Virus record (IMG/VR): IMGVR_UViG_2579778842_000003
Origin: a virus
Taxonomy: Duplodnaviria > Heunggongvirae > Uroviricota > Caudoviricetes
Length of the DNA: 64,000 nucleotides
Reading direction: 5' to 3' (one strand)
This document shows, piece after piece, positions 31,133-64,000 of this stretch; positions within the stretch are counted from its first letter, which is position 1, and every line of letters begins with the position of its first letter. The position numbers and the translations under genes were made by a program. The notes beneath the pieces are model-generated. The model was not told the DNA's origin, ran no database searches, and worked only from the letters and a program-made list of their open reading frames with translations.

Positions 31133-31149
31133 AGATTTATTAGAGCAAT
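31133..31149 (-). promoter_or_regulatory. C1 operator
   Basis: Minus strand ATTGCTCTAATAAATCT, 16 of 17. Confidence 0.65.
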
Positions 31150-31655
31150 TATTGTTGATGAAGAAGCGCATTTTCATACTCCCTGACCATTAACGTAAGC
31201 ACGCCGTGCCTCCTGAAAACACGCGCCACTTCAATCTTATCTTCCAGCGCGAACGCGATTTTACTTAGACCAATTTTCTTAAGGAGATCAATCTTTGCTG
31301 GGCCGTCATTTCTGTCATCGGTGGCAGGACGCATAGATAGCAAAGGCTCAGCCCCGTTTGTTACGTACTTCCGCAGCCAGGCTCGTGTTTTATCCCTTGC
31401 GATCTCACAGCGCCCGGTTACAAACCAGACCGTGTAAACGCTAAATAACTGGCGCACCATATCAATAACTGGAGTGATGGGAGTATCGGTGTCACAGGCG
31501 AGATTAAACTCGTTCCAGTCCTTTGTTAATGCACCTTTACTTGGTGGCGGAAGCAAATGCAGTCTGTCTTCAGTTGCCTCTGATATTGTTCCATCAATAT
31601 CGACTATGACGATATACGGACGTTCCTGGTGTGCATGTTTATTGAAAATACTCAA
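31149..31655 (-). CDS. HAD-superfamily phosphatase-like protein, 168 aa
   Basis: DxDGT motif in VDIDGTIS near N-terminus. Confidence 0.5.
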   Translation of the reverse strand: MSIFNKHAHQERPYIVIVDIDGTISEATEDRLHLLPPPSKGALTKDWNEFNLACDTDTPITPVIDMVRQLFSVYTVWFVTGRCEIARDKTRAWLRKYVTNGAEPLLSMRPATDDRNDGPAKIDLLKKIGLSKIAFALEDKIEVARVFRRHGVLTLMVREYENALLHQQ

Positions 31656-32991: not shown

Positions 32992-33210
32992 TCAAAGTTC
33001 CGTATTAGCTTGTGCTTCGGTCATTTTTCCTAAGTATGAAGGTGGAAGGACTACGCAATTTGTATCCAGCCCCTCACCCAGGGCAGCCTGTAAAATTCTG
33101 GCTAAGGAGAGTCTCTTGTTGCGATACCGGGTGATGACATGCCTGATATCGCCGGACGGCGTAACAAAGGCGATCAGCCAGTAGTGATATTTCCGTCGGA
33201 ATGGCCACAT
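32992..33210 (-). CDS. Hypothetical protein, 72 aa
   Basis: Small ORF directly upstream of the 420-aa gene. Confidence 0.3.
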   Translation of the reverse strand: MWPFRRKYHYWLIAFVTPSGDIRHVITRYRNKRLSLARILQAALGEGLDTNCVVLPPSYLGKMTEAQANTEL

Positions 33211-33224
33211 AGTGCACCTTATGG

Positions 33225-33241
33225 ATTGCTCTAATAAAAAA
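33225..33241 (+). promoter_or_regulatory. C1 operator-like site
   Basis: ATTGCTCTAATAAAAAA, 14 of 17. Confidence 0.5.
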
Positions 33242-33262
33242 CGTGATGAGTGTACATCACGT
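33233..33262 (-). terminator. Intrinsic terminator flanked by two C1 operator-like sites
   Basis: ACGTGATG-AGTGTA-CATCACGT with T-run on the minus strand. Confidence 0.5.
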
Positions 33263-33273
33263 TTTAAAAATAT

Positions 33274-33290
33274 GGAATTATTAGAGCAAT
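33274..33290 (-). promoter_or_regulatory. C1 operator-like site
   Basis: Minus strand ATTGCTCTAATAATTCC, 14 of 17. Confidence 0.5.
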
Positions 33291-33291
33291 A

Positions 33292-33993
33292 TTATTCTGA
33301 TTCTTGCTCAAAAAACGCGCTAATGAGAGGAAGCCAATCCTCTGACACTTCACGCGGTCGCGGTTTGCCATGGAAGAAGATTATTCGGCAGTCTTTTGGT
33401 AATGCCCCATTCCCCCTGGAGTAGCGCGCACTTGCATATTTCGAACCAGGTTCCACAACATCGGCCTTGTAACTTACAAACCATCCCGGATACAGATCCT
33501 GAAATGCTGGTGTATCATCGCCCATAACCTTCCGTAAGAACCCCTGATCACCCCAGCATTCAGTAGTAACACAATGAGCAATCCAACCTTCCGGATCTTG
33601 CCAGAATGCACTCCAGATATGCGCTTTTACACTATTTGGTATCCACAGGGCACCGCTGCCACGATATTGTGGATGGTAAAAATCCCTAAGCATGGTGAAG
33701 CTGGTTGGTGGATCCTCAAGGATTGGGCGTATATCACCGGCAATAACCGTGTCCAAATCCAGATAAAACAGATCATCGGTTATATCCGGTCGGAACAACT
33801 CGATTTTCGCCCACCAGCCACGGCACTTTTGCCACTGGTTGATCAATGGGATAACTTTGACGCCAGGTACATGTAAACGCTTCAGGTCTGTCAGGCAAAT
33901 AATTTCATAGCCTTTTGGCAGTTGATTAACCAGCCACTGCACATCGGAAGCGTTATAGTCGCCACCAGAGCGAAGAACTAAAGCAATCTTCAT
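33292..33993 (-). CDS. Putative nucleotide-sugar transferase-like protein with DxD motif, 233 aa
   Basis: [14 protein letters not shown]-terminus and FYLDLDTV DxD-like motif; assignment tentative. Confidence 0.35.
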
Positions 33994-34682
33994 GCTGCAC
34001 CATCACCTTTCACTTTCATCAATGTCAGGTTTCCGCAAAATACGGCACCAGTGTCGATATAATGCTGATTCCAGAATGTCTTCGGGCTTTTCACCGGAGT
34101 GTGACCAAAGATAAAACGATCTGCGCCCGAAATTTCGCCACCAATATCATCCATCGAATCACTGATACGCTCGCGCGCCCAGACAACGTTGAAAAGCGGC
34201 ACCTCCTTACCGAATTGATATTCATTATCCGGATAGTCGGCATGGGCTATAACGATAGTTTCTTGCCCGGTGTTCAACTCAATGATATAGGGCAGTCGTC
34301 TTACCAACTCCACCAGCGCCCTGGCTAATATTTCCTGATCAGTGTCCAGCATGAAGAACCATTGTCCGCCATTCATTAGCCAGTTATTCACGTTGCCATC
34401 AGGACTTAACGCATCGAGCATCAACCGCTCATGGTTCCCCATTACTGCCCTGAACCAGGGCATCTGCAATAGTTCCAGACATTCGACATTTTCAGTACCG
34501 CGATCGATAAGGTCGCCGACCGATATCAGTAAATCCTGCGCCGGGTCAAAATCCACACGATGGAGTTCGGACATCAGTCTGGTGTAGCAACCATGCAGAT
34601 CACCAACAACCCAGATATTCCTGTATTTGGTACCGTCGATACGGTGATAAATTGTTGGTGCCATCATGTATTCTTCAGCCAT
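33990..34682 (-). CDS. ppp: Ser/Thr protein phosphatase (lambda PPase-like calcineurin fold), 230 aa
   Basis: Metallophosphatase motifs GDLHG, GDLIDRG, GNHE. Confidence 0.8.
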
Positions 34683-35290
34683 TCTTTAAGAGTCATCTGC
34701 GGAATACCTCCCATTTTCCCGCATGAAACAACGTCAATCTGTTCACGCGCAGACTGGAATAACAAAGGCAGGTGACTTAGATTTTTTGGCGTGCCGCCGG
34801 AGTGAACGCGTGGTTCTTGCGTAGCGTCAACGCCCACCAGGGCGACATGTTTGAATCCGATATGGAAAGCCAGGTTCAGAGCACCATATGCACTATTGCC
34901 GCTGGCAATTTCATTCTCATCTTCACAAAGGCCGAAATGTGCGGACCAGCGCCACGCCCACCACTCGGGAGAATTCGTATTTTTTGGCTCCGTGCCGCGT
35001 TCAGCCACACGACGGAAGCACAGAACGCCATCTCTGACTTCACGTTCTTTAACATCGGGTAGTGCCATGCAATAACAAACACCACGGCGACGGCGGCCAC
35101 GACCAACGCGCCGCATATTGTCTGGCGATGGATCAAGTGTGAAAAAATAAGAAGCGCGGTTAAGCCAGTCGATGGCCCCATTGACCGCTATAATCGGCAC
35201 TCCGCGCGGCGCAACAAAGTTTGCGGCGCTTGGGCCACTGCCGACGATAATAACGCGATCACTGCCTCTAAATTTATTCTTGGGAAACAT
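34664..35290 (-). CDS. MptE/Maf-like (DUF115-type) protein, 208 aa
   Basis: IIVGSGPSA motif; paralogue of adjacent gene. Confidence 0.4.
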
Positions 35291-35850
35291 TGAATTGCAC
35301 TGCTCCTACTTGCATTCAAAATATGTAAATCTGCGTGTTTTTTGCGGGTATCCAGGAACTGCTGTTGCCATTTTGAAATAGACACCTGCGTTGGATTCCG
35401 TAGTGCTTGAGGGTGCGCGCCATGCCAATGAAGGCCGTTTTGCAGAGAACAGTCATAGCCGACTAATACCACTACTTCAGCCCCTGATTCAGCAGCCAGA
35501 CTGATAGCCTGCGCGCCGCTATTTACCCCTTCCGCCGGTCCACAATATCGCCTGTACTCCAACGAAAATGATTTCGCCGCCGCCAGGTTGGCTGTCACTT
35601 TGCGGAATCTCCCTCCCGGTATGGTGGATCCGTATTGCTTCCACCATGACAAATCACCGGCGTATAAGGCATAAATGTCATCGAACATCTGCCAGGAATT
35701 GTTAACCGCGATGATTGAACAGCCAGTTTTTTCTATAGCAGCACAGTCCTCACGAGTGAGTGACGGACCGCTACCGACACAAAAAACAGTCCTAGTCGCC
35801 CTGGGTGGTATGTTCATTCTCAGCTGCAAATTCAGCCTCCAGGCGAGCAT
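35188..35850 (-). CDS. MptE/Maf-like (DUF115-type) protein, 220 aa
   Basis: VFCVGSGPSL motif; 3' end overlaps paralogue by about 100 nt in another frame. Confidence 0.4.
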   Translation of the reverse strand: MLAWRLNLQLRMNIPPRATRTVFCVGSGPSLTREDCAAIEKTGCSIIAVNNSWQMFDDIYALYAGDLSWWKQYGSTIPGGRFRKVTANLAAAKSFSLEYRRYCGPAEGVNSGAQAISLAAESGAEVVVLVGYDCSLQNGLHWHGAHPQALRNPTQVSISKWQQQFLDTRKKHADLHILNASRSSAIQCFPRINLEAVIALLSSAVAQAPQTLLRRAECRL

Positions 35851-36013
35851 TCATTTCAGCGATTACAGGGTCCACTACAGCATCTGTTTCCTGTTCATTA
35901 CGCGGCATGACCGATGCCAGCGACTCATAATTAACCTTGGATGACACGATTATTCTCCCGATGTTAAAGTGCACTACCACAAAGAGCGTACATGCACTAA
36001 TTAATTTATTATT

Positions 36014-36592
36014 TTAAGCAGCATGCAACCACTTATCGCCGTTCAATACATGCTCAATAGCCTCACCCTTTTTAAGACTTATGTATTCCAGGATGGCGGT
36101 AATCGCTTGTTCTGCACCATACGCAAGAACAACGTAGTAGCCTTCCTCTCTAAGCCTGCGCATCCAGGCGATCTGCTCTTTCGTCGGGGCTTTACCATTT
36201 GGTTCTTTAAGCTCAATTCGCATGCCGTGATAAATACCGCATGCTTTATCGAGACTCATGTCCGGATAACCTTTTTTCTGCCCTTCAGCCTTCATTTTCC
36301 CGGCGGTTGCTTTTGAACGTTTCCCTCCGTTAGGCGTTGCATGCAACAGCTCATAGATGTCAGGGTGCTTGCGTTCGAAGTAATCAAAAATGAAAACCTG
36401 CTCGAAGTGCTCGCAATTTCCGTCGCGCAGGTCTGGGTTCTTTGCAAGTGCTGCAAGTGCCTTCGCATGTGGAGAAACTTCTTTTACCGGCGCAAGCGAT
36501 AAGAATGGATCCTTTTTGGTTTTTGGCCTGGACCGCCCCTTATTTCGACGCTCACTAAAAGCCTGAAACTCTTCCTCAGTAAAGCGCAACAT
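36014..36592 (-). CDS. VRR-NUC-like nuclease domain protein, 192 aa
   Basis: PD-(D/E)xK-like D...E-L-K pattern (DMSLDKACG ... RIELKE). Confidence 0.4.
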   Translation of the reverse strand: MLRFTEEEFQAFSERRNKGRSRPKTKKDPFLSLAPVKEVSPHAKALAALAKNPDLRDGNCEHFEQVFIFDYFERKHPDIYELLHATPNGGKRSKATAGKMKAEGQKKGYPDMSLDKACGIYHGMRIELKEPNGKAPTKEQIAWMRRLREEGYYVVLAYGAEQAITAILEYISLKKGEAIEHVLNGDKWLHAA

Positions 36593-41784: not shown

Positions 41785-42783
41785 TTATCCGTTACCGCGC
41801 GACGGTTTCTGCGTGATAAACGTCTCAAGCATCTTTTCCGCAATTGCCGACCAGGTGTGACACTGGACCTTTTCAGCATTTTTCACGCGATCAACGCGAG
41901 CAATAACCTCATCCCAATCAATCCGCGACTTGATAACCATATGGTTCACCAACTCCAGGCGATCCGGCGGAAGGCAATCGGGCGGAGTTAATATCAACGC
42001 TCCACACATTGCCGCCTCAAGAACAGTTAATCCAAGGCTTTCGGGATGCGTAACGATAAAAACGTCACTCTTACGCAATTCAGCTGCAAATTCGGTTGCT
42101 GGCACCGGCGTCCGCCTGTATGGAGTTACCGAAATATTCCCCGGATCAATGGTAACCAATCCGTCATCAGTCAACGTTCTGGCCTCATACGGAACGGTCA
42201 GACGCTGAAGGTTCATAAGGATACTTAAGGAGTGATCAAAACCACTAACATCAAATGCAGCGTGGTCTACAAAAATACGCAGAATATCGTCTGTTTTGGT
42301 TTCCAGATGGAACAGCTCCTGATTCGCTGCCCATCCAACATGTTTGTTAAAACGATTATGACGCTCTAACCTGCCGGGATTATCCAGGTACCGCCAGGTA
42401 TCATCGCGGACAGTAAAAGTAATATCGACTGGTGCCGAATCCAGCATAGAACCGTCATATACCTGGGCTACCCATCCAGAGAATCGGCGACACAGTTGCA
42501 TGCCTATTTCCCTGGGTACCGTAGTAAAATACCTCAATCCTGGTGCCAAAATGGCCTTCGCAGAACATGCGGTCGCAGCAGTCAACACAGCTTCAACATA
42601 ATCCTCCGGGCTTTCGACGCCAGGGGAATATGGACGATGGTATTGCAATGTTACCCCTGCCTCACTAAAGGCGCAGGCCAGGTTATAAGCCCACATTTCC
42701 GTATATGTTTTCACATCACTGATAGCTTCAAATTTTCGCCCAATGATCAGGATGTTCATCGGCTTTTCCTCATTCCATTGCAT
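41785..42783 (-). CDS. GT-B (GT4-like) glycosyltransferase, 332 aa
   Basis: C-terminal E-x7-E motif THPESLGLTVLEAAMCG; start overlaps ban stop. Confidence 0.5.
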   Translation of the reverse strand: MQWNEEKPMNILIIGRKFEAISDVKTYTEMWAYNLACAFSEAGVTLQYHRPYSPGVESPEDYVEAVLTAATACSAKAILAPGLRYFTTVPREIGMQLCRRFSGWVAQVYDGSMLDSAPVDITFTVRDDTWRYLDNPGRLERHNRFNKHVGWAANQELFHLETKTDDILRIFVDHAAFDVSGFDHSLSILMNLQRLTVPYEARTLTDDGLVTIDPGNISVTPYRRTPVPATEFAAELRKSDVFIVTHPESLGLTVLEAAMCGALILTPPDCLPPDRLELVNHMVIKSRIDWDEVIARVDRVKNAEKVQCHTWSAIAEKMLETFITQKPSRGNG

Positions 42784-44153
42784 TAATAATCCTCTTGCCA
42801 GTCAGCACCAGCATAGTTATCAAACCGTGAGTATTGGCCGTTAAAAGCCAATCTCACCGTGCCAATTGGGCCATTTCGTTGCTTTCCGATAATTACCTCG
42901 GCAATGCCCTTCATTTCGCTATCCGGGTGATAAACTTCGTCGCGATACAGAAACATGATCAGGTCTGCGTCCTGCTCAATTGCTCCTGATTCACGTAAAT
43001 CTGAATTTACCGGTCGTTTGTCCGCACGCTGTTCAAGCGATCGATTAAGTTGTGACAATGCCACCACCGGTACTTGTAATTCCTTCGCCAACGCCTTCAG
43101 TGAGCGAGAAATCTCGGCAATTTCCAGCGTTCGGTTATCTTGCAGCTCGGGGACGCGCATAAGTTGCAGGTAGTCGATCATAATCATGCTCAAACCACCA
43201 TTTTCTTTATAAACACGACGAGCGCGGGAACGAAGCTCTGTAGGTGTCAGGGCGCTTGAGTCATCAATAAAAATATTCTGCTTGTCCAACAGAATACCCA
43301 TTGCGCCAGAAACCCGCGCCCAATCCTCGTCGTTAAGTTGCCCTGTCCGAATACGAGTCTGATCAACGCGTGCAAGAGAAGCCAGTGAGCGCATCATCAG
43401 CTGGTGGCTCGGCATCTCAAGGCTAAAAACCAATACGGGCTTATCGTTACGAACTGCGGCATTTTCGACGAGATTCATCGCAAACGTGGTCTTCCCCATA
43501 GATGGGCGGGCGGCGACAATGATGAGATCGGACGGCTGAAGCCCTGCCGTCTTCTTATTGAGATCGGTAAATCCCGTATCAAGCCCCGTTACACCATCAT
43601 GTGGTCGCTGAAACAACTCTTCTATGCGAGATACCGTTGCATCGAGAATGCTGGCGATATCTTTTGGACCACTACCGCTCTTTTGTCGTTTTTCAGCTAT
43701 TTCAAAAACGCGGCGCTCGGCCATATCTAGCAATTCATTGCTGCCCCTGCCATCCTGCGCATATCCAGCTTCGGCTATTTCATTTGCGACGGAAATCATT
43801 TCACGAACAACCGCGCGTTCACGAACGATATCCGCATAAGCACAAATATTTGCCGCGCTGGGCGTGTTCTTTGACATCTCCGCAAGGTACGCAAAACCAC
43901 CGGCGCGTTCTAATTTACCGTTCTGTTCAAGTGCTTCAGCAAGTGTTATCAAATCAATCGGTTTGCCATGACTTAATAACCTCTCCATCTCACTGAAAAT
44001 TTCACGATGAGCACTGGTATAAAAATCATCAGCAACTATACGATCTGCAACTTCATCCCAGCGGCAGTTATCAAGCATTAAGCCACCAAGTACAGCTTGT
44101 TCTGCACTAAGGGAATTTGGCATGGATTCAAGAGGGGATGCAGACATTAGCAC
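42783..44153 (-). CDS. ban: Ban, DnaB-family replicative helicase, 456 aa
   Basis: N-terminus SAEQAVLGGLMLDN ... DDFYT and Walker A ARPSMGKTTFA are DnaB hallmarks. Confidence 0.9.
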   Translation of the reverse strand: MLMSASPLESMPNSLSAEQAVLGGLMLDNCRWDEVADRIVADDFYTSAHREIFSEMERLLSHGKPIDLITLAEALEQNGKLERAGGFAYLAEMSKNTPSAANICAYADIVRERAVVREMISVANEIAEAGYAQDGRGSNELLDMAERRVFEIAEKRQKSGSGPKDIASILDATVSRIEELFQRPHDGVTGLDTGFTDLNKKTAGLQPSDLIIVAARPSMGKTTFAMNLVENAAVRNDKPVLVFSLEMPSHQLMMRSLASLARVDQTRIRTGQLNDEDWARVSGAMGILLDKQNIFIDDSSALTPTELRSRARRVYKENGGLSMIMIDYLQLMRVPELQDNRTLEIAEISRSLKALAKELQVPVVALSQLNRSLEQRADKRPVNSDLRESGAIEQDADLIMFLYRDEVYHPDSEMKGIAEVIIGKQRNGPIGTVRLAFNGQYSRFDNYAGADWQEDY

Positions 44154-44433
44154 TCCACCCAGGCGTGCTGAATGTCAGATATAATCGGCATACTCAAATC
44201 ACTCCTAACGATATGAGTCATCACCAGAAAATCAGGATTAATGCGCCGGACTCTTCCCGGCTGTCACACCGAATCGCCAGGATGGTGAATCCCTTTACCC
44301 GAGAAACAACAAACGGTGGCTTGCACATTCCGGCTACCTGGTTCGTTGCCTGAGCTAGGGGCAAGGTTCCCCCCTTTTAACGTCACCAGACCGCTAACGA
44401 CGCATGTGCCAGACGCCGTGTTACAACCAAATA

Positions 44434-44509
44434 TGGTGGCCCCTACCGGACTTGAACCGGTGACCGTGCGATTATGAGTCGCCAGCTCTAACCACTGAGC
44501 TAAAGGGCC
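44434..44509 (-). tRNA. trnI: tRNA with CAU anticodon, Ile2-like (lysidine type)
   Basis: 76-nt cloverleaf ending CCA, anticodon loop CTCATAA; resembles E. coli ileX as recalled. Confidence 0.7.
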
Positions 44510-44536
44510 GGATTACTGCCAATTTTGCTTACGCTT

Positions 44537-45364
44537 TTATTTCACCGGAACAAACGGAACAGCGGTATTACTGGTCATATACTGCGGTAATGTACCGTTC
44601 CATTTGTTGATCGCTTCCAACTCCATAACACCGGGGTTCTGGCGCAGAGCTTCACCACGTAAACGAATGGCATCAGCTTCGGCCTGGGCTTTTGTGCGAA
44701 TAGCATCAGCCTGTCCGGCAGCTTCCGCGCGCAGCATGTTGGCCTCTGCTTCACGTTGTTTGACCTCTTGCTCGCGTTGCAGGGTTTTTTGGTTTGCCGT
44801 GACTTTGGCGTTAATACTGTCAATAACTGTTGGCGGGTATTCTGGCTTACCTACATAAGAGAGGCTCATCACCTGAATGCCGATTGGCGTCATTTCTTCC
44901 TGAATGTCTTTAAGGGCTGCATCAAGCAATTCAGATTTGCCACCGTCGATAAATTTGTCGGTGGTCATTTTGCTGGCTAACCGGTTCAGAGCATCTGCAA
45001 CCTTCTGGCGTAGATCGGTATCAGTAATATCATCTACACCTTTGCGATAGGTCTGAAATACCGTTGTGACTTTTGCTGGATCAACCTTGTAGGCTACGCC
45101 GATGTGGTAACCAATGGTTGTTCCGTCGCTCATCTGGAAGCTGAACGGCTCATCGTATGTCTTCATTTGCTTAAAGGTCGGGAAGATATAAACTTCAGTA
45201 TTCAAGCCTGTCCAGTAGCGACCAACGCCAACTACTTCACCGATACCTTTATCATCCCCCAGCTTATTTACTTTGATCCCTACGTTACCTGGCTCTACCC
45301 GATCGCATCCGGTCAGACATAAAGAACCCAAAATAATCGCTGCACTAATCAACGTTTTTTTCAT
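44537..45364 (-). CDS. plp: SPFH/band-7 domain lipoprotein, 275 aa
   Basis: Lipobox LCLTGC after signal peptide; position as P1 plp. Confidence 0.55.
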   Translation of the reverse strand: MKKTLISAAIILGSLCLTGCDRVEPGNVGIKVNKLGDDKGIGEVVGVGRYWTGLNTEVYIFPTFKQMKTYDEPFSFQMSDGTTIGYHIGVAYKVDPAKVTTVFQTYRKGVDDITDTDLRQKVADALNRLASKMTTDKFIDGGKSELLDAALKDIQEEMTPIGIQVMSLSYVGKPEYPPTVIDSINAKVTANQKTLQREQEVKQREAEANMLRAEAAGQADAIRTKAQAEADAIRLRGEALRQNPGVMELEAINKWNGTLPQYMTSNTAVPFVPVK

Positions 45365-45581
45365 TAATTAATTTCCTGGTTTTTTCACGAAAAAAGACTA
45401 CTGCGAAAGCCGGGTAAATGAGCGCGAGAAGGACTCCCAACAATACAAGTATTGTGCTGTTAGATGAGATCATATTTGGCAAAAGCCAAACATACAGAAC
45501 CAGTGACACAATCAAACAGAGGACGGCATAAATATATAACCGCACCCATAGCGTTCGACATTTGTTCGGATTGTTCTGCAT
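45345..45581 (-). CDS. upl: Small membrane protein, 78 aa
   Basis: Two hydrophobic helices; directly upstream of plp. Confidence 0.4.
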   Translation of the reverse strand: MQNNPNKCRTLWVRLYIYAVLCLIVSLVLYVWLLPNMISSNSTILVLLGVLLALIYPAFAVVFFREKTRKLINEKNVD

Positions 45582-45740
45582 CCTCTCACTCCATTATTTA
45601 ACGAATAAAAAAGCTGCGGTGCCGGGTGCCTCCCGGTGTCCTTTGGCTGGTTATCCACCGTGGACGGGGAAACAAGGAGAAATGAATGGACTGATATAAC
45701 CATTTCCCCGCGTGCGCTTAGCCGCATTCACCGCAACGGA

Positions 45741-46310
45741 AAGAGCATTCTTGGTGGACCTGTAGATTGGGATATGAACCCGTTACAGGAGAATGCTCTT
45801 ACCTGTTACGTGCTCCGTTTCGTGGAGCTAACGGCGGGTGATCGGGCCGCACCAGGCTGGACTTATTTCAGCGTTATGCTCATGCCAGAGAATCAAACTG
45901 TGATGGTCGGTGCTGAACTCCGACACAGGGTTGTAGCAAGCCCCGCAAAGCGCGCACTACTGTAGTTGCGGCACATCAGCCTGTGCATTCACCACAATGT
46001 TGAGAACACTGGTTGTCACGCTGCAACGCAACATTTATTCGTAGATTGGGATATGACCCCGTTACGCCAGTGTTCTCAACGTTGTAGTGCCGGTTACGGT
46101 TCCGGCCAGGCCTCTTCCTCAACGGGGTGTTCTCCATACGGACTACCGTTTATTGGTCGTTCCTGCGGTTTATGTTGTGAAGCCAGATGCTTATCTTCTG
46201 GTTGCTTCAAAGAGCTGCACTTCATCACAACGGTAAGGGTACTTCGTAGGGATTCGAACCCTCTGCCAAGCTCGGCGATCTCCGACGTCGCAAAATACCC
46301 TTACCTGTTG
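45741..46310 (-). repeat. Three tRNA-like minihelix elements (long stem enclosing a T-arm-like hairpin) upstream of the tRNA pair
   Basis: Direct repeats GTAGATTGGGATATGA(A/C)CCCGTTAC at 45762-45786 and 46041-46065 inside long inverted repeats; third at 46236-46310 with GGGTTCGAATCCC; none folds as a canonical cloverleaf. Confidence 0.45.
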
Positions 46311-46313
46311 TGC

Positions 46314-46389
46314 TGGTGCCGATTAACGGACTCGAACCGCTGACATCCTGCTTACAAGGCAGGCGCTCTACCAACTGAGCTAAACCGGC
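46314..46389 (-). tRNA. trnT: tRNA-Thr (UGU)
   Basis: 76-nt cloverleaf with CCA, anticodon loop CTTGTAA, T-loop TTCGAGT. Confidence 0.8.
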
Positions 46390-46391
46390 AT

Positions 46392-46467
46392 TGGCGATGG
46401 TGGATGGATTTGAACCATCGACCCGTTGATTAACAGTCAACCGCTCTAACCGCTGAGCTACACCATC
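46392..46467 (-). tRNA. trnA: tRNA-Asn (GUU)
   Basis: 76-nt cloverleaf with CCA, anticodon loop CTGTTAA, T-loop TTCAAAT. Confidence 0.8.
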
Positions 46468-56797: not shown

Positions 56798-58504
56798 TTG
56801 AGTAACTTACGCGAATACCAGAATCGTATTGCAGATATCGCAAAACGCTCTAAAGCTGTGCTTGGCTGGGCAAGCACTGCGCAGTTCGGTACTGATAACC
56901 AATTCATTAAAGATGATGCCGCGCGTGCCGCATCTATCCTTGAAGCTGCACGTAAAGACCCGGTTTTTGCGGGTATCTCTGATAATGCCACCGCTCAAAT
57001 CGCTACAGCGTGGGCAAGTGCACTGGCTGACTACGCCGCAGCACATAAATCTATGCCGCGTCCGGAAATTCTGGCCTCCTGCCACCAGACGCTGGAAAAC
57101 TGCCTGATTGAGTCCACCCGCAATAGCATGGATGCCACTAATAAAGCGATGCTGGAATCCGTCGCAGCAGAGATGATGAGCGTTTCTGACGGTGTTATGC
57201 GTCTGCCTTTATTCCTCGCGATGATCCTGCCTGTTCAGTTGGGGGCAGCTACCGCTGATGCGTGTACCTTCATTCCGGTTACGCGTGACCAGTCCGACAT
57301 CTATGAAGTCTTTAACGTGGCAGGTTCCTCTTTTGGTTCTTATGCTGCTGGTGATGTTCTGGACATGCAATCCGTCGGTGTGTACAGCCAATTACGTCGC
57401 CGCTATGTGCTGGTGGCAAGCTCCGATGGCACCAGCAAAACCGCAACCTTCAAGATGGAAGACTTCGAAGGCCAGAATGTACCAATCCGAAAAGGTCGCA
57501 CTAACATCTACGTTAACCGTATTAAGTCTGTTGTTGATAACGGTTCCGGCAGCCTACTTCACTCGTTTACTAATGCTGCTGGTGAGCAAATCACTGTTAC
57601 CTGCTCTCTGAACTACAACATTGGTCAGATTGCCCTGTCGTTCTCCAAAGCGCCGGATAAAGGCACTGAGATCGCAATTGAGACGGAAATCAATATTGAA
57701 GCCGCTCCTGAGCTGATCCCGCTGATCAACCACGAAATGAAGAAATACACCCTGTTCCCAAGTCAGTTCGTTATCGCGGCTGAGCACACGGTACAGGCGG
57801 CGTATGAAGCACAGCGTGAATTTGGTCTGGACCTGGGTTCCCTACAGTTCCGCACCCTGAAGGAATACCTGTCTCATGAACAGGATATGCTGCGTCTTCG
57901 CATCATGATCTGGCGCACTCTTGCGACCGACACCTTTGACATCGCTCTGCCGGTTAACCAGTCCTTTGATGTATGGGCAACCATCATTCGTGGCAAATTA
58001 CAGACTGTATATCGCGACATTATTGAGCGCGTTAAATCTTCTGGTGCGATGGGGATGTTTGCTGGTGCTGATGCAGCATCTTTCTTCAAACAGTTGCCGA
58101 AGGATTTCTTCCAGCCAGCCGAAGACTATATCCAGACTCCGTATGTTCACTACATCGGTACCCTGTTCGGTAACGTGAAAGTGTACGAAGTACCTGCTGG
58201 TATTTGTAAGAACTTAACGACAGATAACATTCAGTTCAGCTCGATGGATGTGCTGTGCTACGTCCGTGATGAAAATCCGGGTAAAGCAGGCTTCGTGACT
58301 GGTGATGCTGTCCCGGCCATCCCGTTCCAGCATCCAACCACTCCGGCGCTGGTCAACCGTACCACGCTGTGGGGTTCGGCTATCAACGATATGCACCCAC
58401 GCAACGGCGCTGATTACTTCACTCGTGTAACGCTGACAATGGCCAAAAAAGGCGGGCTTAACTTCATAAGCGGCGACACGATTGATGCCGGTGACTCTGA
58501 GTAA
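56798..58504 (+). CDS. Major structural protein (P1 gene 23 position, putative major head protein), about 568 aa; start uncertain (TTG at 56798 or 56777)
   Basis: Large ORF after parS; AAGGAAG SD 6 nt before TTG; no in-frame ATG near the 5' end. Confidence 0.45.
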   Translation: MSNLREYQNRIADIAKRSKAVLGWASTAQFGTDNQFIKDDAARAASILEAARKDPVFAGISDNATAQIATAWASALADYAAAHKSMPRPEILASCHQTLENCLIESTRNSMDATNKAMLESVAAEMMSVSDGVMRLPLFLAMILPVQLGAATADACTFIPVTRDQSDIYEVFNVAGSSFGSYAAGDVLDMQSVGVYSQLRRRYVLVASSDGTSKTATFKMEDFEGQNVPIRKGRTNIYVNRIKSVVDNGSGSLLHSFTNAAGEQITVTCSLNYNIGQIALSFSKAPDKGTEIAIETEINIEAAPELIPLINHEMKKYTLFPSQFVIAAEHTVQAAYEAQREFGLDLGSLQFRTLKEYLSHEQDMLRLRIMIWRTLATDTFDIALPVNQSFDVWATIIRGKLQTVYRDIIERVKSSGAMGMFAGADAASFFKQLPKDFFQPAEDYIQTPYVHYIGTLFGNVKVYEVPAGICKNLTTDNIQFSSMDVLCYVRDENPGKAGFVTGDAVPAIPFQHPTTPALVNRTTLWGSAINDMHPRNGADYFTRVTLTMAKKGGLNFISGDTIDAGDSE

Positions 58505-58564
58505 TCAGGGGAAGTTCTCCGTTTAACATAGCGCCCCCGTGCGGGGCGCATAACAGGGAAAGTT

Positions 58565-60154
58565 ATGTCTCAATATTCAATTCAACAGTCATTAGGTAAT
58601 GCATCCGGCGTCGCGGTTAGCCCGATCAATGCCGATGCGACGTTATCTACCGGTGTTGCATTAAATAGCAGCTTGTGGGCTGGTATTGGCGTATTTGCGC
58701 GTGGCAAGCCGTTTACTGTTCTTGCGGTTACTGAGTCCAATTACGAAGATGTTCTCGGCGAACCGCTGAAGCCGTCTTCCGGCTCACAGTTCGAACCAAT
58801 TCGCCATGTATACGAAGCTATTCAGCAAACGTCTGGTTATGTTGTTCGCGCTGTTCCGGATGATGCGAAGTTCCCGATTATTATGTTCGATGAATCAGGC
58901 GAACCGGCTTACAGTGCGTTGCCATACGGTTCTAAAATTGAACTTGATAGTGGCGAAGCCTTTGCTATCTACGTTGATGATGGTGATCCGTGTATTTCAC
59001 CTACCCGTGAGTTAACCATCGAAACGGCAACAGCGGACAGCGCGGGTAATGAACGCTTCCTCTTAAAACTGACCCAGACGACTTCGCTCGGCGTGGTAAC
59101 GACCCTGGAGACACACACTGTGTCTTTGGCGGAAGAAGCGAAAGATGACATGGGCCGCTTGTGTTATCTGCCTACGGCTCTGGAAGCCCGTTCTAAATAT
59201 CTGCGCGCGGTTGTTAATGAAGAGCTGATTTCGACAGCGAAAGTAACAAACAAAAAATCGTTGGCGTTCACTGGCGGTACCAACGGCGATCAGTCGAAAA
59301 TCTCAACCGCTGCGTACCTGCGTGCGGTGAAAGTGCTGAACAATGCGCCGTACATGTACACCGCTGTTCTTGGCTTGGGCTGCTATGACAATGCGGCTAT
59401 CACCGCATTAGGTAAAATCTGTGCAGATCGCCTGATTGATGGCTTCTTTGATGTCAAACCGACATTGACGTACACGGAAGCGATCTCTGCTGTTGAAGAT
59501 ACCGGTTTACTTGGTACCGATTATGTAAGCTGTGCTGTCTATCACTACCCGTTCTCCTGCAAAGACAAATGGACCCAATCCCGTGTGGTCTTTGGTCTGT
59601 CTGGCGTGGCGTATGCGGCGAAAGCTCGTGGCGTCAAGAAAAACTCTGATGTCGGCGGTTGGCATTACTCACCGGCTGGTGAAGAACGTGCCGTCATTGC
59701 TCGTGCGTCAATTCAACCGCTGTATCCGGAAGATACCCCGGACGAAGAAGCTATGGTCAAGGGCCGTCTCAATAAAGTATCTGTTGGCACCTCTGGCCAG
59801 ATGATCATCGACGATGCTTTAACTTGCTGCACGCAGGATAACTATCTGCACTTCCAGCACGTCCCATCCCTGATGAATGCAATCAGCCGTTTCTTTGTCC
59901 AGTTAGCCCGACAGATGAAGCATAGCCCGGACGGTATTACTGCGGCTGGCCTGACTAAAGGGATGACCAAACTTTTAGATCGCTTTGTCGCCTCCGGCGC
60001 TCTGGTGGCTCCTCGTGATCCTGATGCTGACGGTACAGAACCGTATGTGCTGAAAGTTACGCAGGCGGAATTCGATAAATGGGAAGTAGTCTGGGCCTGC
60101 TGCCCGACTGGCGTAGCCCGTCGTATCCAGGGCGTACCGCTGCTTATTAAGTAA
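58565..60154 (+). CDS. Putative tail sheath protein (P1 gene 22 position), 529 aa
   Basis: Size and position consistent with contractile sheath; synteny-based. Confidence 0.4.
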   Translation: MSQYSIQQSLGNASGVAVSPINADATLSTGVALNSSLWAGIGVFARGKPFTVLAVTESNYEDVLGEPLKPSSGSQFEPIRHVYEAIQQTSGYVVRAVPDDAKFPIIMFDESGEPAYSALPYGSKIELDSGEAFAIYVDDGDPCISPTRELTIETATADSAGNERFLLKLTQTTSLGVVTTLETHTVSLAEEAKDDMGRLCYLPTALEARSKYLRAVVNEELISTAKVTNKKSLAFTGGTNGDQSKISTAAYLRAVKVLNNAPYMYTAVLGLGCYDNAAITALGKICADRLIDGFFDVKPTLTYTEAISAVEDTGLLGTDYVSCAVYHYPFSCKDKWTQSRVVFGLSGVAYAAKARGVKKNSDVGGWHYSPAGEERAVIARASIQPLYPEDTPDEEAMVKGRLNKVSVGTSGQMIIDDALTCCTQDNYLHFQHVPSLMNAISRFFVQLARQMKHSPDGITAAGLTKGMTKLLDRFVASGALVAPRDPDADGTEPYVLKVTQAEFDKWEVVWACCPTGVARRIQGVPLLIK

Positions 60155-60163
60155 GGGAATACA

Positions 60164-60979
60164 ATGAGCAAAAACTTTTTTCAATCCGGGGCATTTTTGG
60201 GGAATGGACTGTCCCGTTTCGCTTTGAACTCTGATCCTGTGCAGCTGATGGAGTCTGCCCGAGCAAGCGCCGAACCGCCAACAGATCCGGTTATTAATAA
60301 TAATCCGGAACCGGCGGCACAGACTAACGATAACGTTCCATCTGATCCGGCTCCTGAGCAAATCCTGGAAGAGAAAGACGGTAAAGAATGGACCGTTGAA
60401 CAGGCGCACCAGATGATTCTGGAAGCTGCAAATCGAAGTGCGATGCAGAATGCGTTGAGTGATGCGGCCGACGCCGTTTTCGCCTGGGCTGATAGCGGTG
60501 ATCTGACTTTCGACTCCCTTGATGGTTTCGTTCAGGCTATCGCTGGTATCTCTGATGACGACGACTCCGAAGTTACAGAAGAACAGGACGATGCCTATAA
60601 CGAAGCATGGGCAAATGTTGCTGACTTCCTCGCAGCATGCGGTGTAGATGATGACATGATCGAAGCACTGGCTGACGATGAAGACGACGACGCTGCTGCT
60701 GATGTTGGTGCCTCTATCGCTGGTTTAGATAGCGACGACCGCGACGAACTGGAAGCGGCGTTTGTTGTTGCTGGCACTTCTGATGAAATGCTGACTGAAG
60801 CATTTAAGAAGGTTGTTCGTAACGGTGAGATCAAACTCATCCGTAAACGCCTGCGGAAAAAACGTCTGACTGCGGCTCAAAAATCGGCGCTGAAAAAAGC
60901 GCGTCGAAAAGCCCAGACCGGCGCGGCAAAACTTGCCCGCAAAAAGTCAATGAAACTGCGCCGTAAGCGCCTTGGCTAA
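60164..60979 (+). CDS. Structural-module protein with acidic body and highly basic C-terminal tail, 271 aa
   Basis: C-terminus KLIRKRLRKKRLTAAQKSALKKARRKAQ. Confidence 0.4.
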   Translation: MSKNFFQSGAFLGNGLSRFALNSDPVQLMESARASAEPPTDPVINNNPEPAAQTNDNVPSDPAPEQILEEKDGKEWTVEQAHQMILEAANRSAMQNALSDAADAVFAWADSGDLTFDSLDGFVQAIAGISDDDDSEVTEEQDDAYNEAWANVADFLAACGVDDDMIEALADDEDDDAAADVGASIAGLDSDDRDELEAAFVVAGTSDEMLTEAFKKVVRNGEIKLIRKRLRKKRLTAAQKSALKKARRKAQTGAAKLARKKSMKLRRKRLG

Positions 60980-61014
60980 AGGAGGAGGCCGGAGAACTCC
61001 GGCCTTTAACTTGA

Positions 61015-61596
61015 ATGGCACCTATACCTTATGGGGTTTACAGCCAGGCTGATGGTGTATCGCCATTTCTGAAAGTTACTTTAACGAACTCTCAGTACCA
61101 GGTTACCGGATATATCAGCCAGGGGGCAGCAATGAACATGGCCCAGAATTGGGAAGCGCCGTTTACCGGTATGTCCATGGGGTCTGTTGCTGGTGCTTTC
61201 AGTGGTTTTGCGCAGGTTGGTACTGAAACAACGTCGGTGGCCCGTTGGAACAGCTTAATGGTTTGGGAGGGGGGAACACCGCCGACTTTCACGCTGCCAG
61301 TAACTTTCATCGCTTTGTTTGACCCATTCACGGAGGTTTCAGGAGCTATCGCCGCATTGTCAGCGATGATTAGCCCGGAACTTAAAGATGCCAGTATTGG
61401 TGGTCGAATCCCGGAGCGTGTGACGCTAAACATTGGTCGCCGGATCAACATCATTGATGTCGCTATCCAGGACATAAGTTTCGATCTCGATGCACCCAGG
61501 GACAGCAATGGGCATTTCCTGAAAAACACCGTCAACCTCCAGTTGACCGGTTCTTCGATATATAACAGCTCCGATATTGTTCGGGCGTTCCAGTAA
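61015..61596 (+). CDS. Structural-module protein, 193 aa
   Basis: ORF with SD in the structural operon. Confidence 0.4.
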   Translation: MAPIPYGVYSQADGVSPFLKVTLTNSQYQVTGYISQGAAMNMAQNWEAPFTGMSMGSVAGAFSGFAQVGTETTSVARWNSLMVWEGGTPPTFTLPVTFIALFDPFTEVSGAIAALSAMISPELKDASIGGRIPERVTLNIGRRINIIDVAIQDISFDLDAPRDSNGHFLKNTVNLQLTGSSIYNSSDIVRAFQ

Positions 61597-61607
61597 AAGG
61601 ATTTTAT

Positions 61608-62117
61608 ATGGGGCACAATAACACTAAGGGAAACCGTAAATTTATTAAGGGCCGCTATACTGCCAACGCGGCCAAAGGCGAACGACTGGTATCTTCTGAA
61701 TTCCAGCTCACTTTTGCAGGCCATGAAGATATCAGCGTACTGGTTCGCACGTCGCAAATTCCTGAAATGACCCGCGAGGATGTGGAGGACTATGGTCCGA
61801 ATGGTGTGAAGTTCAACCAGCACGGTCCAATTCGAAACTCTGGGGAAATCCAGGTCCAGTGCGTGGAGACTATCGAAGGCGATATTCTTCAGTTCATTAA
61901 AGATCGCATTGCGGCGAAGGACTATGTTGATATCACGATGGCTGCTACCCCTGAATCCAAATCTTCCGGGGTTAACGCTGTGACAAAAGCTGCTACAACA
62001 ATTGAAATGTTGGACTGCAAAATCTACAGTGATGCAATCGACTTTAGTACCGAAGATGTGACTGCCGCTGTGCGCCCGTCACTTCGTATCGTCTACAACT
62101 GGATTGAGTGGGATTAA
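61608..62117 (+). CDS. Structural-module protein, 169 aa
   Basis: Last gene of operon, followed by terminator. Confidence 0.4.
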   Translation: MGHNNTKGNRKFIKGRYTANAAKGERLVSSEFQLTFAGHEDISVLVRTSQIPEMTREDVEDYGPNGVKFNQHGPIRNSGEIQVQCVETIEGDILQFIKDRIAAKDYVDITMAATPESKSSGVNAVTKAATTIEMLDCKIYSDAIDFSTEDVTAAVRPSLRIVYNWIEWD

Positions 62118-62148
62118 GTGTTATCCCTTGTACTTTTAATCTTCTTCG

Positions 62149-62166
62149 GGGGAGGTTTACCTCCCC
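62149..62166 (+). terminator. Terminator hairpin at the end of the structural operon
   Basis: GGGGAGGT-TT-ACCTCCCC then TTGA. Confidence 0.5.
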
Positions 62167-62414
62167 TTGATACAACCGCATTCCACCGCCTAGCGAATAG
62201 AGTAAAATAACATCTTGTAAATACTCTGGTATGAAGTGAGTGTAAACTAACAGTTACCTATTAATAAATACTCCTATACTTTTCTACCTTAAATATTTAG
62301 TATGCACATGGTTAAATTTATGTAGCGTCAAAGTTTGTGAAGGCAAGATGTCCGTTAATCTTTGTCGAAGCATATATGGTTCTAGGAAGTATTGGCTTAT
62401 TTAAGAGGAATGTC

Positions 62415-63407
62415 ATGTTACGTATCAATGATATGAGCAATATTATTGTAGGTATTTACAGCAAAAAAAATGAAGAAAAATCATTTGAGTATATGTACTC
62501 TTATCTGACAAGGAAAACAGCTTATTTAACACGTGAGTTTATTCGTGATGGTAATCAGGATAAAGAATTATTAAAAAATACCTATATAGAAGCATTGTCT
62601 TGGCTTTTTGCAATCTGTGATAAACTTGAAATACAACCACAGGAAGCATTTTATAAAAAATTTCCTAGTTGCTGTCCTTATTGCTTAGGGGCGCCTTGTT
62701 CCTGTTCTCAAACACACAGAAAGCCAGAGAAAATAAGAAGCGCAAAAGGAATTAAAGATGAGCTTTTCAATAAATATAACGCTATTAAACCTATGCAATT
62801 TCCGCCTTATGCGCCACGAATGATTAATGACATCTATCCGTCGAATAGAACCATTTGGTCTACTTTTGGTGGGTTTTATCATTCATCCAGGTTATTCGAA
62901 GAGTTGGGTGAGTTGCAAGAGGCTTATGCTAAATCAATTGAAGATAAAAATTACAACAAAGAAAATCTTCATGAAGAGTGTGCTGATATATATGCTTGGT
63001 TGTTTTCTTTATGGGGGATTATTTTTAAAGATGATGATCTTGGCGAGGCGTTTGAAAGTTATTATCTAAATGGTTGTCCTGTCTGCAATAAAAGAGAATG
63101 TGTTTGTGTCAGTTATTCAGGGAAGATTAGTAAAACTGATGAGAAAAGAGCATCATTGGAAAAACTTAAACAAGAGTTAGAACTTCTCTTGAAGGATGAG
63201 ACGACAGGTGAGTTTAAGGAGAATTTAGAGTCTGCTATATCTGCAATTAAAGATGCGATAGACTCAGGAAAAGATGCAGATAGCAGAAGAACTTTATCGG
63301 AAGTCGAAAGTGTTCTTGACTCAATCGAAAAAAATTCAGCCAAGATGTCTAGTGTGGCAAGTAACGCCCTTAATGTTTTTAATGTAATCAGTAAGTTATT
63401 CCAATAA
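62415..63407 (+). CDS. AT-rich cargo protein with MazG-like NTP-pyrophosphohydrolase motifs and two Cys clusters, about 330 aa
   Basis: FEELGELQEAY and HEECADIYAWLFSL resemble the paired MazG/HisE helices; CCPYCLGAPCSC and CPVCNKRECVC; AAGAGGA SD before ATG at 62415; strongly AT-rich. Confidence 0.5.
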   Translation: MLRINDMSNIIVGIYSKKNEEKSFEYMYSYLTRKTAYLTREFIRDGNQDKELLKNTYIEALSWLFAICDKLEIQPQEAFYKKFPSCCPYCLGAPCSCSQTHRKPEKIRSAKGIKDELFNKYNAIKPMQFPPYAPRMINDIYPSNRTIWSTFGGFYHSSRLFEELGELQEAYAKSIEDKNYNKENLHEECADIYAWLFSLWGIIFKDDDLGEAFESYYLNGCPVCNKRECVCVSYSGKISKTDEKRASLEKLKQELELLLKDETTGEFKENLESAISAIKDAIDSGKDADSRRTLSEVESVLDSIEKNSAKMSSVASNALNVFNVISKLFQ

Positions 63408-63749
63408 TGGTGCCCACCGGTTTGTTAGAAAATGAACCGGTGTTGTATTATTTATTATTAAATTAATTTTAATCCTAATAGATGGATGTTTGTTGTGGAT
63501 ATAATTTGTTTAAGTTTTAGGTGTATTTTTCCATATATAATCTAGGTGGTATTAGCAAAGCAAGTATGGAATTTTGTTAACAGCTAGATATTTCTGAAAG
63601 TCATCATGTCGCGAAGGCTATTGGGAGATATGGTCTGAATCTTTGCATGATGTGAAATAACTCCTTCTACTTCATTGTGTTTTACACTATTGGGGAGAAA
63701 AGGGTGCATTGAGGTTACCAGACACACGAAGAGTGGCGGGGATCACTCC

Positions 63750-64000
63750 CATAAGCGCTAACTTAAGGGTTGTGGTATTACGCCTGATATGATTTAACGT
63801 GCCGATGAATTACTCTCACGATAACTGGTCAGCAATTCTGGCCCATATTGGTAAGCCCGAAGAACTGGATACTTCGGCACGTAATGCCGGGGCTCTAACC
63901 CGCCGCCGCGAAATTCGTGATGCTGCAACTCTGCTACGTCTGGGGCTGGCTTACGGCCCCGGGGGGATGTCATTACGTGAAGTCACTGCATGGGCTCAGC
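63750..64000 (+). mobile_element. IS186 (IS4 family), left end, truncated by window edge
   Basis: Terminal repeat CATAAGCGCTAACTTAAGGGTTG at 63750; flanking G/C-rich target GGCGGGGATCACTCCC. Confidence 0.75.
63805..64000 (+). CDS. IS186 transposase, N-terminal part only
   Basis: Own translation MNYSHDNWSAILAHIGKPEELDTSARNAGALTRRREIRDAATLLRLGLAYGPGGMSLREVTAWAQ, recognised as IS186 transposase N-terminus. Confidence 0.75.
   Translation, partial: MNYSHDNWSAILAHIGKPEELDTSARNAGALTRRREIRDAATLLRLGLAYGPGGMSLREVTAWAQ

Follow-up and report, generated by a model that had tools for sequence, protein, structure and literature searches.

The described systems closest to the genes pmgO, pmgP, pmgQ and dbn of bacteriophage P1 are glycosyltransferases of several families and the virion glycosylation machineries of actinobacteriophages and chloroviruses. 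These genes were analysed here in a 64,000-nucleotide (nt) stretch of DNA from a Caudoviricetes virus (IMG/VR record IMGVR_UViG_2579778842_000003), which is called the window below. The window comes from a P1-like phage, and its region 33000-36200 is 98% identical to canonical P1. Since 2004 the pmg genes have been listed under the placeholder description "putative morphogenetic function", with no known phenotype. An original prediction, made from the letters of the window, had seen here a cluster of sugar-transferase-like genes with a modification capacity not assigned to any system. That idea stands, and our literature search found no functional study of pmgO, pmgP, pmgQ or dbn. The open reading frames (ORFs) that it named are all present on the minus strand and correspond to P1 pmgQ, ppp, pmgP, pmgO and dbn (Table 1).

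Maf proteins (PF01973/DUF115) consist, in the strict sense, of three domains over some 600 residues and glycosylate flagellin with a nonulosonate activated by cytidine monophosphate (CMP). PmgO and PmgP (220 and 208 residues, respectively) do not have this architecture: each is a single domain of about 200 residues, equivalent to the Maf catalytic domain only and without the flanking domains, and both score under the Pfam cut-off. To our knowledge, Escherichia coli K-12 makes neither CMP-pseudaminic nor CMP-legionaminic acid, the donors of Maf enzymes, so that the donor of PmgO and PmgP must differ. The sequence similarity to the Campylobacter enzymes Cst-I and Cst-II (CAZy GT42) is not significant (E 0.19), an equivalent of their catalytic histidine is not established, and sialic acid is unavailable in most hosts of the module. 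WaaZ of E. coli, the proposed transferase of the third 3-deoxy-D-manno-octulosonic acid (Kdo) residue (KdoIII), is likewise a small soluble enzyme using a CMP-activated ulosonic acid, and the conserved motif of PmgO and PmgP aligns with it. However, WaaZ is encoded in the chromosomal waa operon and acts on the lipid A-core, and the similarity lies at the noise boundary (probability 12-17%). PmgQ (233 residues) is shorter than the GT8 enzymes (glycogenin, Skp1 alpha-galactosyltransferase, GlyE, LgtC, WaaJ/WaaO). As for viruses, capsid and tail proteins of mycobacteriophages are reportedly O-glycosylated. In the genome report of mycobacteriophage Maravista, capsid glycosylation was inferred from two putative glycosyltransferases, and PMC5852040 cites the capsid protein of PBCV-1 as glycosylated by virus-encoded enzymes. 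The actinobacteriophage and chlorovirus systems are comparable to the P1-type module in that their transferase genes are neighbours of capsid genes and are co-expressed with those for structural proteins, but they differ in enzyme families and in hosts, which for the module are Gram-negative, and the glycan of the P1-type module is a putative one. This module is best regarded as a variant of phage-encoded glycosylation machinery, of putative function, and not as a new kind of thing.

Comparison of loci showed that pmgO, pmgP and pmgQ form a conserved module in phages of diverse Gram-negative hosts. The three genes are adjacent, without ppp, in the lambdoid Citrobacter rodentium phage phiNP, and adjacent as well in phages or prophages assigned to Zhongshania, Commensalibacter, Methylophilaceae, Microbulbifer, Brevundimonas, Sinomicrobium, Pseudomonas and Ochrobactrum. 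All hosts assigned so far are diderms, which is possibly a bias of the search pattern; the scan of viral contigs used a distant first sequence and the P1-led scan was saturated with near-identical P1 relatives. Some loci hold only pmgP and pmgQ, and PmgO-like genes alone are more widespread, being found in D3-like Pseudomonas phages and in several jumbo phages. In a metagenomic phage the two first proteins are naturally fused in frame (P0051, 376 residues), with a PmgQ homologue and another small DxD protein as neighbours, and this fusion argues that PmgO and PmgP act together physically. Genes inserted in the module encode methyltransferases dependent on S-adenosylmethionine, an FkbM-type methyltransferase, and GT2-like and Nucleotid_trans-like proteins. 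Neither sugar-nucleotide synthesis (sugar-activation) genes nor base-modification genes accompany the module in these loci.

The gene dbn lies 6 kb from pmgO-pmgP-pmgQ in P1, behind ban. In the E. coli phage EP_H11, an orthologue of Dbn (48% identity, E 2e-107, hhalign 100%) is encoded between the PmgP and PmgQ homologues, and the Dbn profile detected copies within a few kb of the module in three further loci (L004, L103 and L123, from Serratia, in the case of L004, Buttiauxella and a distant P1-like contig). Since the orthologue stands within the module and these copies nearby, dbn can be considered functionally part of it, which agrees with the grouping made in the original prediction. For the Ser/Thr phosphatase gene ppp, which the original prediction had mentioned as a neighbour, a place in the same set was not supported: its insertion between pmgP and pmgQ is confined to the P1/P7 lineage and near relatives, it is absent from most other loci, and it is probably not a core part. 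A scrambled form of the system was observed in L004 (Serratia plymuthica chromosome, 20.6 kb), where PmgP- and PmgQ-like genes lie beside lysis genes, a Dbn-like gene lies about 3 kb from them, two PmgO-like genes stand separately and a group II intron maturase fragment is located between pieces of the module.

The analysis supports PmgO and PmgP as paralogues of the Maf/MptE-like (DUF115) fold class. The two families aligned over their full length with hhalign (97.9% probability, E 5e-13). In the structural comparison PmgO matched a Maf glycosyltransferase best, with 163 residues aligned, and then MptE and Cst-I, and the fold of the Maf central domain and MptE was thereby recovered. The predicted GSGPS loop is present at residues 26-30 of PmgO and 17-21 of PmgP, with G-P-S invariant or nearly so in both families, and in the alignment mentioned above, which is not significant alone, the motifs by which Cst-II binds its CMP-sugar (GxGPS, N, S-G and G-x-D) fall opposite the conserved ones of the P1-type proteins. 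Membership of PF01973 was borne out in part: weak matches were obtained for 32 of the 33 PmgO-family and all 41 PmgP-family members (best E 3e-8 and 9e-7, respectively) and some homologues have precomputed hits, but the P1 proteins themselves stay below the cut-off. A search of PDB sequences with the PmgP profile gave nothing useful, and a viral fold library returned only uncharacterised DUF115-like phage proteins. An alignment of P0051 with both families misplaced PmgO homologues on the PmgP half and was left out of the structure prediction.

PmgQ is supported as a GT8-like GT-A transferase with a DxD motif, in this case D-L-D, since it is GT8-like both by structure and by profile, although it had no Pfam hit at E values up to 1, including Glyco_transf_8 (PF01501). 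Dbn contains the predicted E-x7-E motif (E248 to E256), and residues H246, E248, E256 and G261 are invariant in 60 homologues, 13 of which give weak Glycos_transf_1 hits. The Dbn family profile matched a solved putative glycosyltransferase (PDB 8xsg, E 6e-4) over the motif region only, and a PDB search with the single Dbn sequence yielded nothing useful. At the level of motifs, Dbn thus appears to be GT4/GT-B-like. For each of the PmgO, PmgP, PmgQ and Dbn families the homologues fall into dozens to hundreds of clusters in which the motif residues are invariant, and consequently these motifs go beyond chance. No membrane-spanning segments were detected in the module proteins, and searches of NCBIfam and PADLOC with these four gave nothing.

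Labels such as "alpha-2,3-sialyltransferase" and "glycosyltransferase" are already in use in RefSeq/PHROG, and the 2004 annotation described Dbn as a "possible glycosyltransferase". The genes and their rough labels were therefore known. The three-gene module and its breadth, the fusion of PmgO and PmgP and the conserved coupling of their genes, the link to Dbn and the synteny with head genes were not found described.

Regarding its genomic position, the module is almost always located in the late block of head-building genes, and in many relatives it lies beside capsid or other structural genes. It is directly 3' of the PF05065 major capsid gene and before the head-tail connector genes in six loci (L190 from Ochrobactrum, L191 from Pseudomonas, L192, L117, L112 and L100), and after the protease and capsid region in L114 and L115. 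In phage D3, the PmgO-like orf7 comes after the capsid gene, following orf6 and orf6.5, with the methyltransferase gene orf13 nearby. Other positions are between the lysis cassette and the terminase (phiNP and L006), after terminase or portal genes (L099 and L118) and among head-tail joining genes (L104 and L102). In P1 the operon adjoins, on the pmgQ side, not the capsid gene but pmgR, which is required for head completion according to PMC9024508.

Several further observations were made around these head-gene loci. The PmgO homologue ORF010 of PAJU2 (L195 5974-6543) is labelled "structural protein" in GenBank; if this label rests on an analysis of virion proteins, the enzyme itself may be carried in the particles. 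Proteins of 93-95 residues are encoded beside the module in HK97-type phages (L196 5637-5924, L192 8283-8567 and L191 10843-11124). They combine a conserved domain of the R-S-Y-L-D-G-G type with a low-complexity stretch rich in Ser, Ala and Pro, which in D3, and apparently in L192, is partly encoded in a frame overlapping the PmgO-like gene, and they could be decoration proteins or glycan acceptors. Finally, a conserved protein of 275 residues is encoded by D3 orf12 (L196 7694-8521), just upstream of the methyltransferase gene, and by PAJU2 ORF011 (L195 6525-7352), between the PmgO-like and methyltransferase genes. Its N-terminus looks heptosyltransferase-like (GT9) by eye, and it has no Pfam hit.

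What the module makes can be stated with more confidence than what it modifies. Four folds or motifs of the transferase type are found together, methyltransferases and additional transferases are variably present as they are in glycan loci elsewhere, and sugar-activation genes are lacking; for these reasons pmgO-pmgP-pmgQ and dbn probably constitute a soluble glycan-assembly set fed by nucleotide sugars of the host. We infer the transferase activity, the donors and, above all, the acceptor. In the pathway that we propose, the lytic-cycle operon pmgN-pmgO-pmgP-ppp-pmgQ and dbn would provide soluble cytoplasmic glycosyltransferases of a single pathway, in which PmgO and PmgP would be diverged Maf-like (DUF115/GT42-like) enzymes most likely working as a physical pair, PmgQ a retaining hexosyltransferase of the GT8 type and Dbn a GT4-type transferase. 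As no sugar-nucleotide synthesis genes go with the module, its enzymes must use nucleotide sugars made by the host; CMP-Kdo for PmgO and PmgP and a hexose activated by uridine diphosphate for PmgQ are guesses from the family types. The product would be a short oligosaccharide, methylated in those relatives with a methyltransferase. The acceptor would most likely be a virion (head) protein that receives its glycan in the cytoplasm, either ahead of assembly or in the course of it, by analogy with Maf, which glycosylates flagellin ahead of its export and assembly.

This acceptor is favoured by the recurrent location of the module among head genes, by its operator-flanked site next to pmgR in P1 and by the precedents of Maf, which modifies the subunits of a structure that assembles itself, and of the actinobacteriophages, whose transferase genes stand beside capsid genes. 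The reading that we prefer is a cytoplasmic glycan-building set modifying virion proteins during lytic growth, with a rough probability of 0.4. A fuller version, in which P1 and many Gram-negative tailed phages would decorate their virion proteins with a short glycan of host lipopolysaccharide-precursor sugars (e.g., Kdo and a hexose) through the Maf-like pair and its GT8- and GT4-type partners, is put forward more tentatively. Virions of the jumbo phage XacN1 were reported to contain at least two glycoproteins (PMC5852040), and XacN1 encodes a PmgP homologue; because it also has other transferases, this is circumstantial for the module.

A considerable number of observations weigh against virion glycosylation. 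Knock-down of pmgO, pmgP, ppp, pmgQ and dbn by CRISPR interference (CRISPRi) did not reduce P1 plating (PMC10695390), and knock-outs of the same genes were non-essential (PMC9024508, as cited in PMC10695390), so that there is no plating phenotype to anchor the function. No glycosylated P1 virion protein has been reported and the P1 virion proteome paper mentions none. The P1 proteins do not reach the curated cut-offs, with 23.4 bits for PmgO and 20.9 bits for PmgP against the PF01973 gathering threshold of 34.6 bits and 23.9 bits for Dbn against the 26.4 of Glycos_transf_1. In EP_H11 and Sinomicrobium the module is away from head genes, and a late-operon position suits any other late-needed function equally well. 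The capsids that it accompanies (HK97-type, lambda E-type, P22/SU10-type and P1 gp23) belong to unrelated families, which implies that there is no conserved acceptor protein. Among HK97-type capsids, the C-terminal residue is Ser in 7 of 7 from module-bearing phages (four lineages) and in 1 of 8 from module-free ones, and the closest pair, 70% identical, ends in ...TGSLTAS in D3 and ...TGELKTA in Vibrio phage Her. However, this comparison is small, post hoc and weak, a hint only, and short capsid tails are common to both groups. Finally, each of the enzyme families has members acting on the lipopolysaccharide core, namely WaaZ (by its faint match), LgtC and WaaJ in GT8, and GT4 enzymes.

This last point leads to the main rival, which is that the module remodels the host envelope. 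While the phage grows lytically, the enzymes would alter the lipopolysaccharide core on the inner side of the cytoplasmic membrane (e.g., with extra Kdo or hexose) and thereby mask the receptor on infected cells and debris or change the surface. P1 adsorbs to the lipopolysaccharide core, overexpression of waaZ is said to truncate the outer core, and the hosts assigned are all diderms, with the possible search bias already indicated. Among the precomputed matches of P0051 there is a faint one to PF27901 (WaaZ_KDO_III), and in hhalign the motif conserved in the PmgO and PmgP families fell on E. coli WaaZ (E 1.5e-3 to 2.4e-3). However, these alignments with a single WaaZ sequence have the low probability given above, and local Pfam scans of the P1 proteins and of the PmgO and PmgP families gave no match to PF27901. 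In addition, it is lysogens that express the surface-conversion genes known from temperate phages, whereas C1 operators are annotated at the P1 operon; lipopolysaccharide made late could presumably not replace the existing outer-membrane stock, and the repeated placement between capsid and connector genes would be left unexplained. An envelope target is, in our opinion, unlikely, although it survives better than the explanations that follow.

Somewhat less probable is another acceptor, which could be phage DNA, a host protein or a small molecule, as in a counter-defence glycosylation of an immune signal or sensor. Dispensability for plaques on laboratory E. coli is typical of counter-defence and host-range genes, the EP_H11 module lies amid small genes annotated only as hypothetical, and the Sinomicrobium one adjoins an ORF that resembles a ribonucleotide reductase subunit by eye. 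Against this, a scan of six operon and Dbn proteins with the PADLOC defence families gave only two matches, both at chance level (E > 0.01). Antirestriction was unchanged in the 24 P1 single-gene knock-outs without plating defect that are described in a passage of PMC9024508, which gives no gene names; the module genes are assigned to that study through PMC10695390. Moreover, DNA-modifying transferases usually cluster with replication genes and not with head genes, and the module, as stated, travels without base-modification genes.

It is very unlikely that PmgO and PmgP are not glycosyltransferases at all and act as nucleotide-dependent pyrophosphokinases or similar enzymes, as their shared MptE/thiamine pyrophosphokinase fold class would allow. 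In structure, the Maf glycosyltransferase gives both the best match and the longest, their motifs line up, at the non-significant E value already given, with those of Cst-II, and their constant partners are PmgQ, Dbn and other glycosyltransferases together with methyltransferases.

The overlap between pmgO and pmgP deserves separate consideration. The original prediction had noticed that the two paralogues overlap by about 100 nt in different frames, and had suggested a frameshift or programmed recoding, naming a sequencing error as what would refute the observation. The overlap measures 103 nt and its DNA is identical in P1 (AF234172), where the overlap is annotated alike, and differs by one base in P7; a sequencing error is therefore dismissed, P1 having been sequenced independently and the overlap being present in relatives of 40-60% identity. 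In phiNP, whose proteins are 41% and 58% identical to those of P1, the homologous genes overlap by 94 nt. Across non-redundant loci the length varies from 4 to 133 nt, and relative to pmgO, pmgP is read in the -1 frame in almost every pair. The ATG of pmgP falls inside the codons of the conserved C-F-P motif of PmgO and is preceded in P1, about 13 nt upstream, by AGGAG; the ATG and the GGAG are conserved in relatives. In PmgO the shared DNA specifies the variable tail at the C-terminus and in PmgP the nucleotide-binding loop at the N-terminus; in the family alignment, what PmgO has past the minimal overlap is a tail that differs in length between members. The simplest reading is a translational coupling retained from an ancestor with a short overlap, after which the position of the pmgO stop codon drifted. 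A programmed -1 frameshift yielding a fused protein was tested with the overlap survey and the initiation signals and rejected as hardly credible, for although the nearly constant -1 phase, the A_AAT_TTA heptamer within the P1 overlap and the existence of P0051 would fit it, no slippery heptamer is common to the relatives and the P1 one is missing from them, pmgP has its own start signals, the overlap length drifts, a shift at the P1 heptamer would remove the conserved C-terminal helix of PmgO, and the -1 phase would be expected from an ancestral 4-nt overlap of the ATGA type.

The conserved gene overlaps have also caused annotation errors in relatives. The PmgP homologue of EP_H11 (L194 7001-7636) is wholly unannotated, and in D3 (L196 5637-6355) the annotated orf7 lacks the N-terminal part with the GPS loop, whose coding sequence overlaps orf6.5 in a different frame.

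The coordinates of the region are collected in Table 1. Positions from the P1 annotation were transferred by adding 23999 to the locus coordinate to obtain that of the window. In the P1 annotation pmgN, pmgO, pmgP, ppp and pmgQ form a single operon behind the C1 operator Oppp, which has four mismatches to the operator consensus and was consequently not listed by our scan allowing three. Besides pmgO/pmgP, every other junction of the operon overlaps as well (pmgN/pmgO by 59 nt, pmgP/ppp by 19 nt and ppp/pmgQ by 4 nt). The operator pair OpmgRb/OpmgRa marks the end of the pmgQ operon and the start of pmgR-pmgS.

Table 1. Position of the pmg operon, its operators and the dbn region in the window.
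Feature	Position	Strand	Remarks
C1 operators OpmgRb/OpmgRa	33225..33290		Directly downstream of pmgQ; operator scan (33225-33241, +; 33274-33290, -), matches P1 annotation
pmgQ	33292..33993	-	GT8-like retaining GT-A glycosyltransferase (supported); DxD at residues 79-81
ppp	33990..34682	-	Lambda NinI-like Ser/Thr metallophosphatase; PF00149, E 6e-16; phrog_246
pmgP	34664..35290	-	Second Maf/MptE-like enzyme, distant paralogue of pmgO
pmgO/pmgP overlap	35188..35290	-	Out of frame, 103 nt
pmgO	35188..35850	-	Maf/MptE-like (DUF115, GT42-like) single-domain putative glycosyltransferase
pmgN	35792..35947	-	Small ORF; P1 annotation; phrog_2350; seen only in P1-like phages
C1 operator Oppp (former Op83)	35991..36007	+	Upstream of the operon; P1 annotation transfer, sequence read
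dbn	41785..42783	-	GT4-like (GT-B) putative glycosyltransferase
ban	42783-44153		dbn lies downstream of ban

The translational coupling of dbn to ban that had been predicted would fit the annotated genes, in which one base is shared by the ban stop and the dbn start (TAATG, with the dbn ATG at 42783). However, the Dbn homologues, including the orthologue of EP_H11, start at residue 9 of the annotated protein, which corresponds to an ATG at 42759 preceded by GAGGA. The true start may be this ATG, and the one-base coupling is thus uncertain.

Some other features of the region were recorded. The start of pmgN is ambiguous, being the GTG at 35947 in the P1 annotation and the GTG at 35980 in the mechanical ORF list, and this gene was essential by CRISPRi and non-essential in the knock-out study (PMC10695390). 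Since the genes downstream of pmgN are all dispensable, a polar effect does not explain this discrepancy. The product of pap (31149-31655) matches the phosphatase domain of polynucleotide kinase-phosphatase (PF25109, E 6.5e-12) and that of pmgM (36014-36592) has a sub-threshold match to the VRR-NUC nuclease, so that Pap and PmgM look like nucleic-acid enzymes rather than an "acid phosphatase" and a "morphogenetic" protein. Of the region 44000-64000, only 84% aligns to canonical P1, in three pieces, which indicates that the window holds some sequence different from P1 in or near the replication and partition region.

In conclusion, our analysis turns genes with a placeholder name into a conserved and mobile multi-enzyme sugar-transfer module to which Dbn belongs and which sits in the head-gene block of many phages. 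If virion glycosylation is its true function, it would be the first such system described for phages of Gram-negative hosts, and this in one of the most studied phages. Glycosylated virions would bear on phage therapy, through antibody recognition, on defence systems that sense capsids and on P1-based transduction tools. If lipopolysaccharide is the target instead, the module would represent a new kind of late receptor masking.

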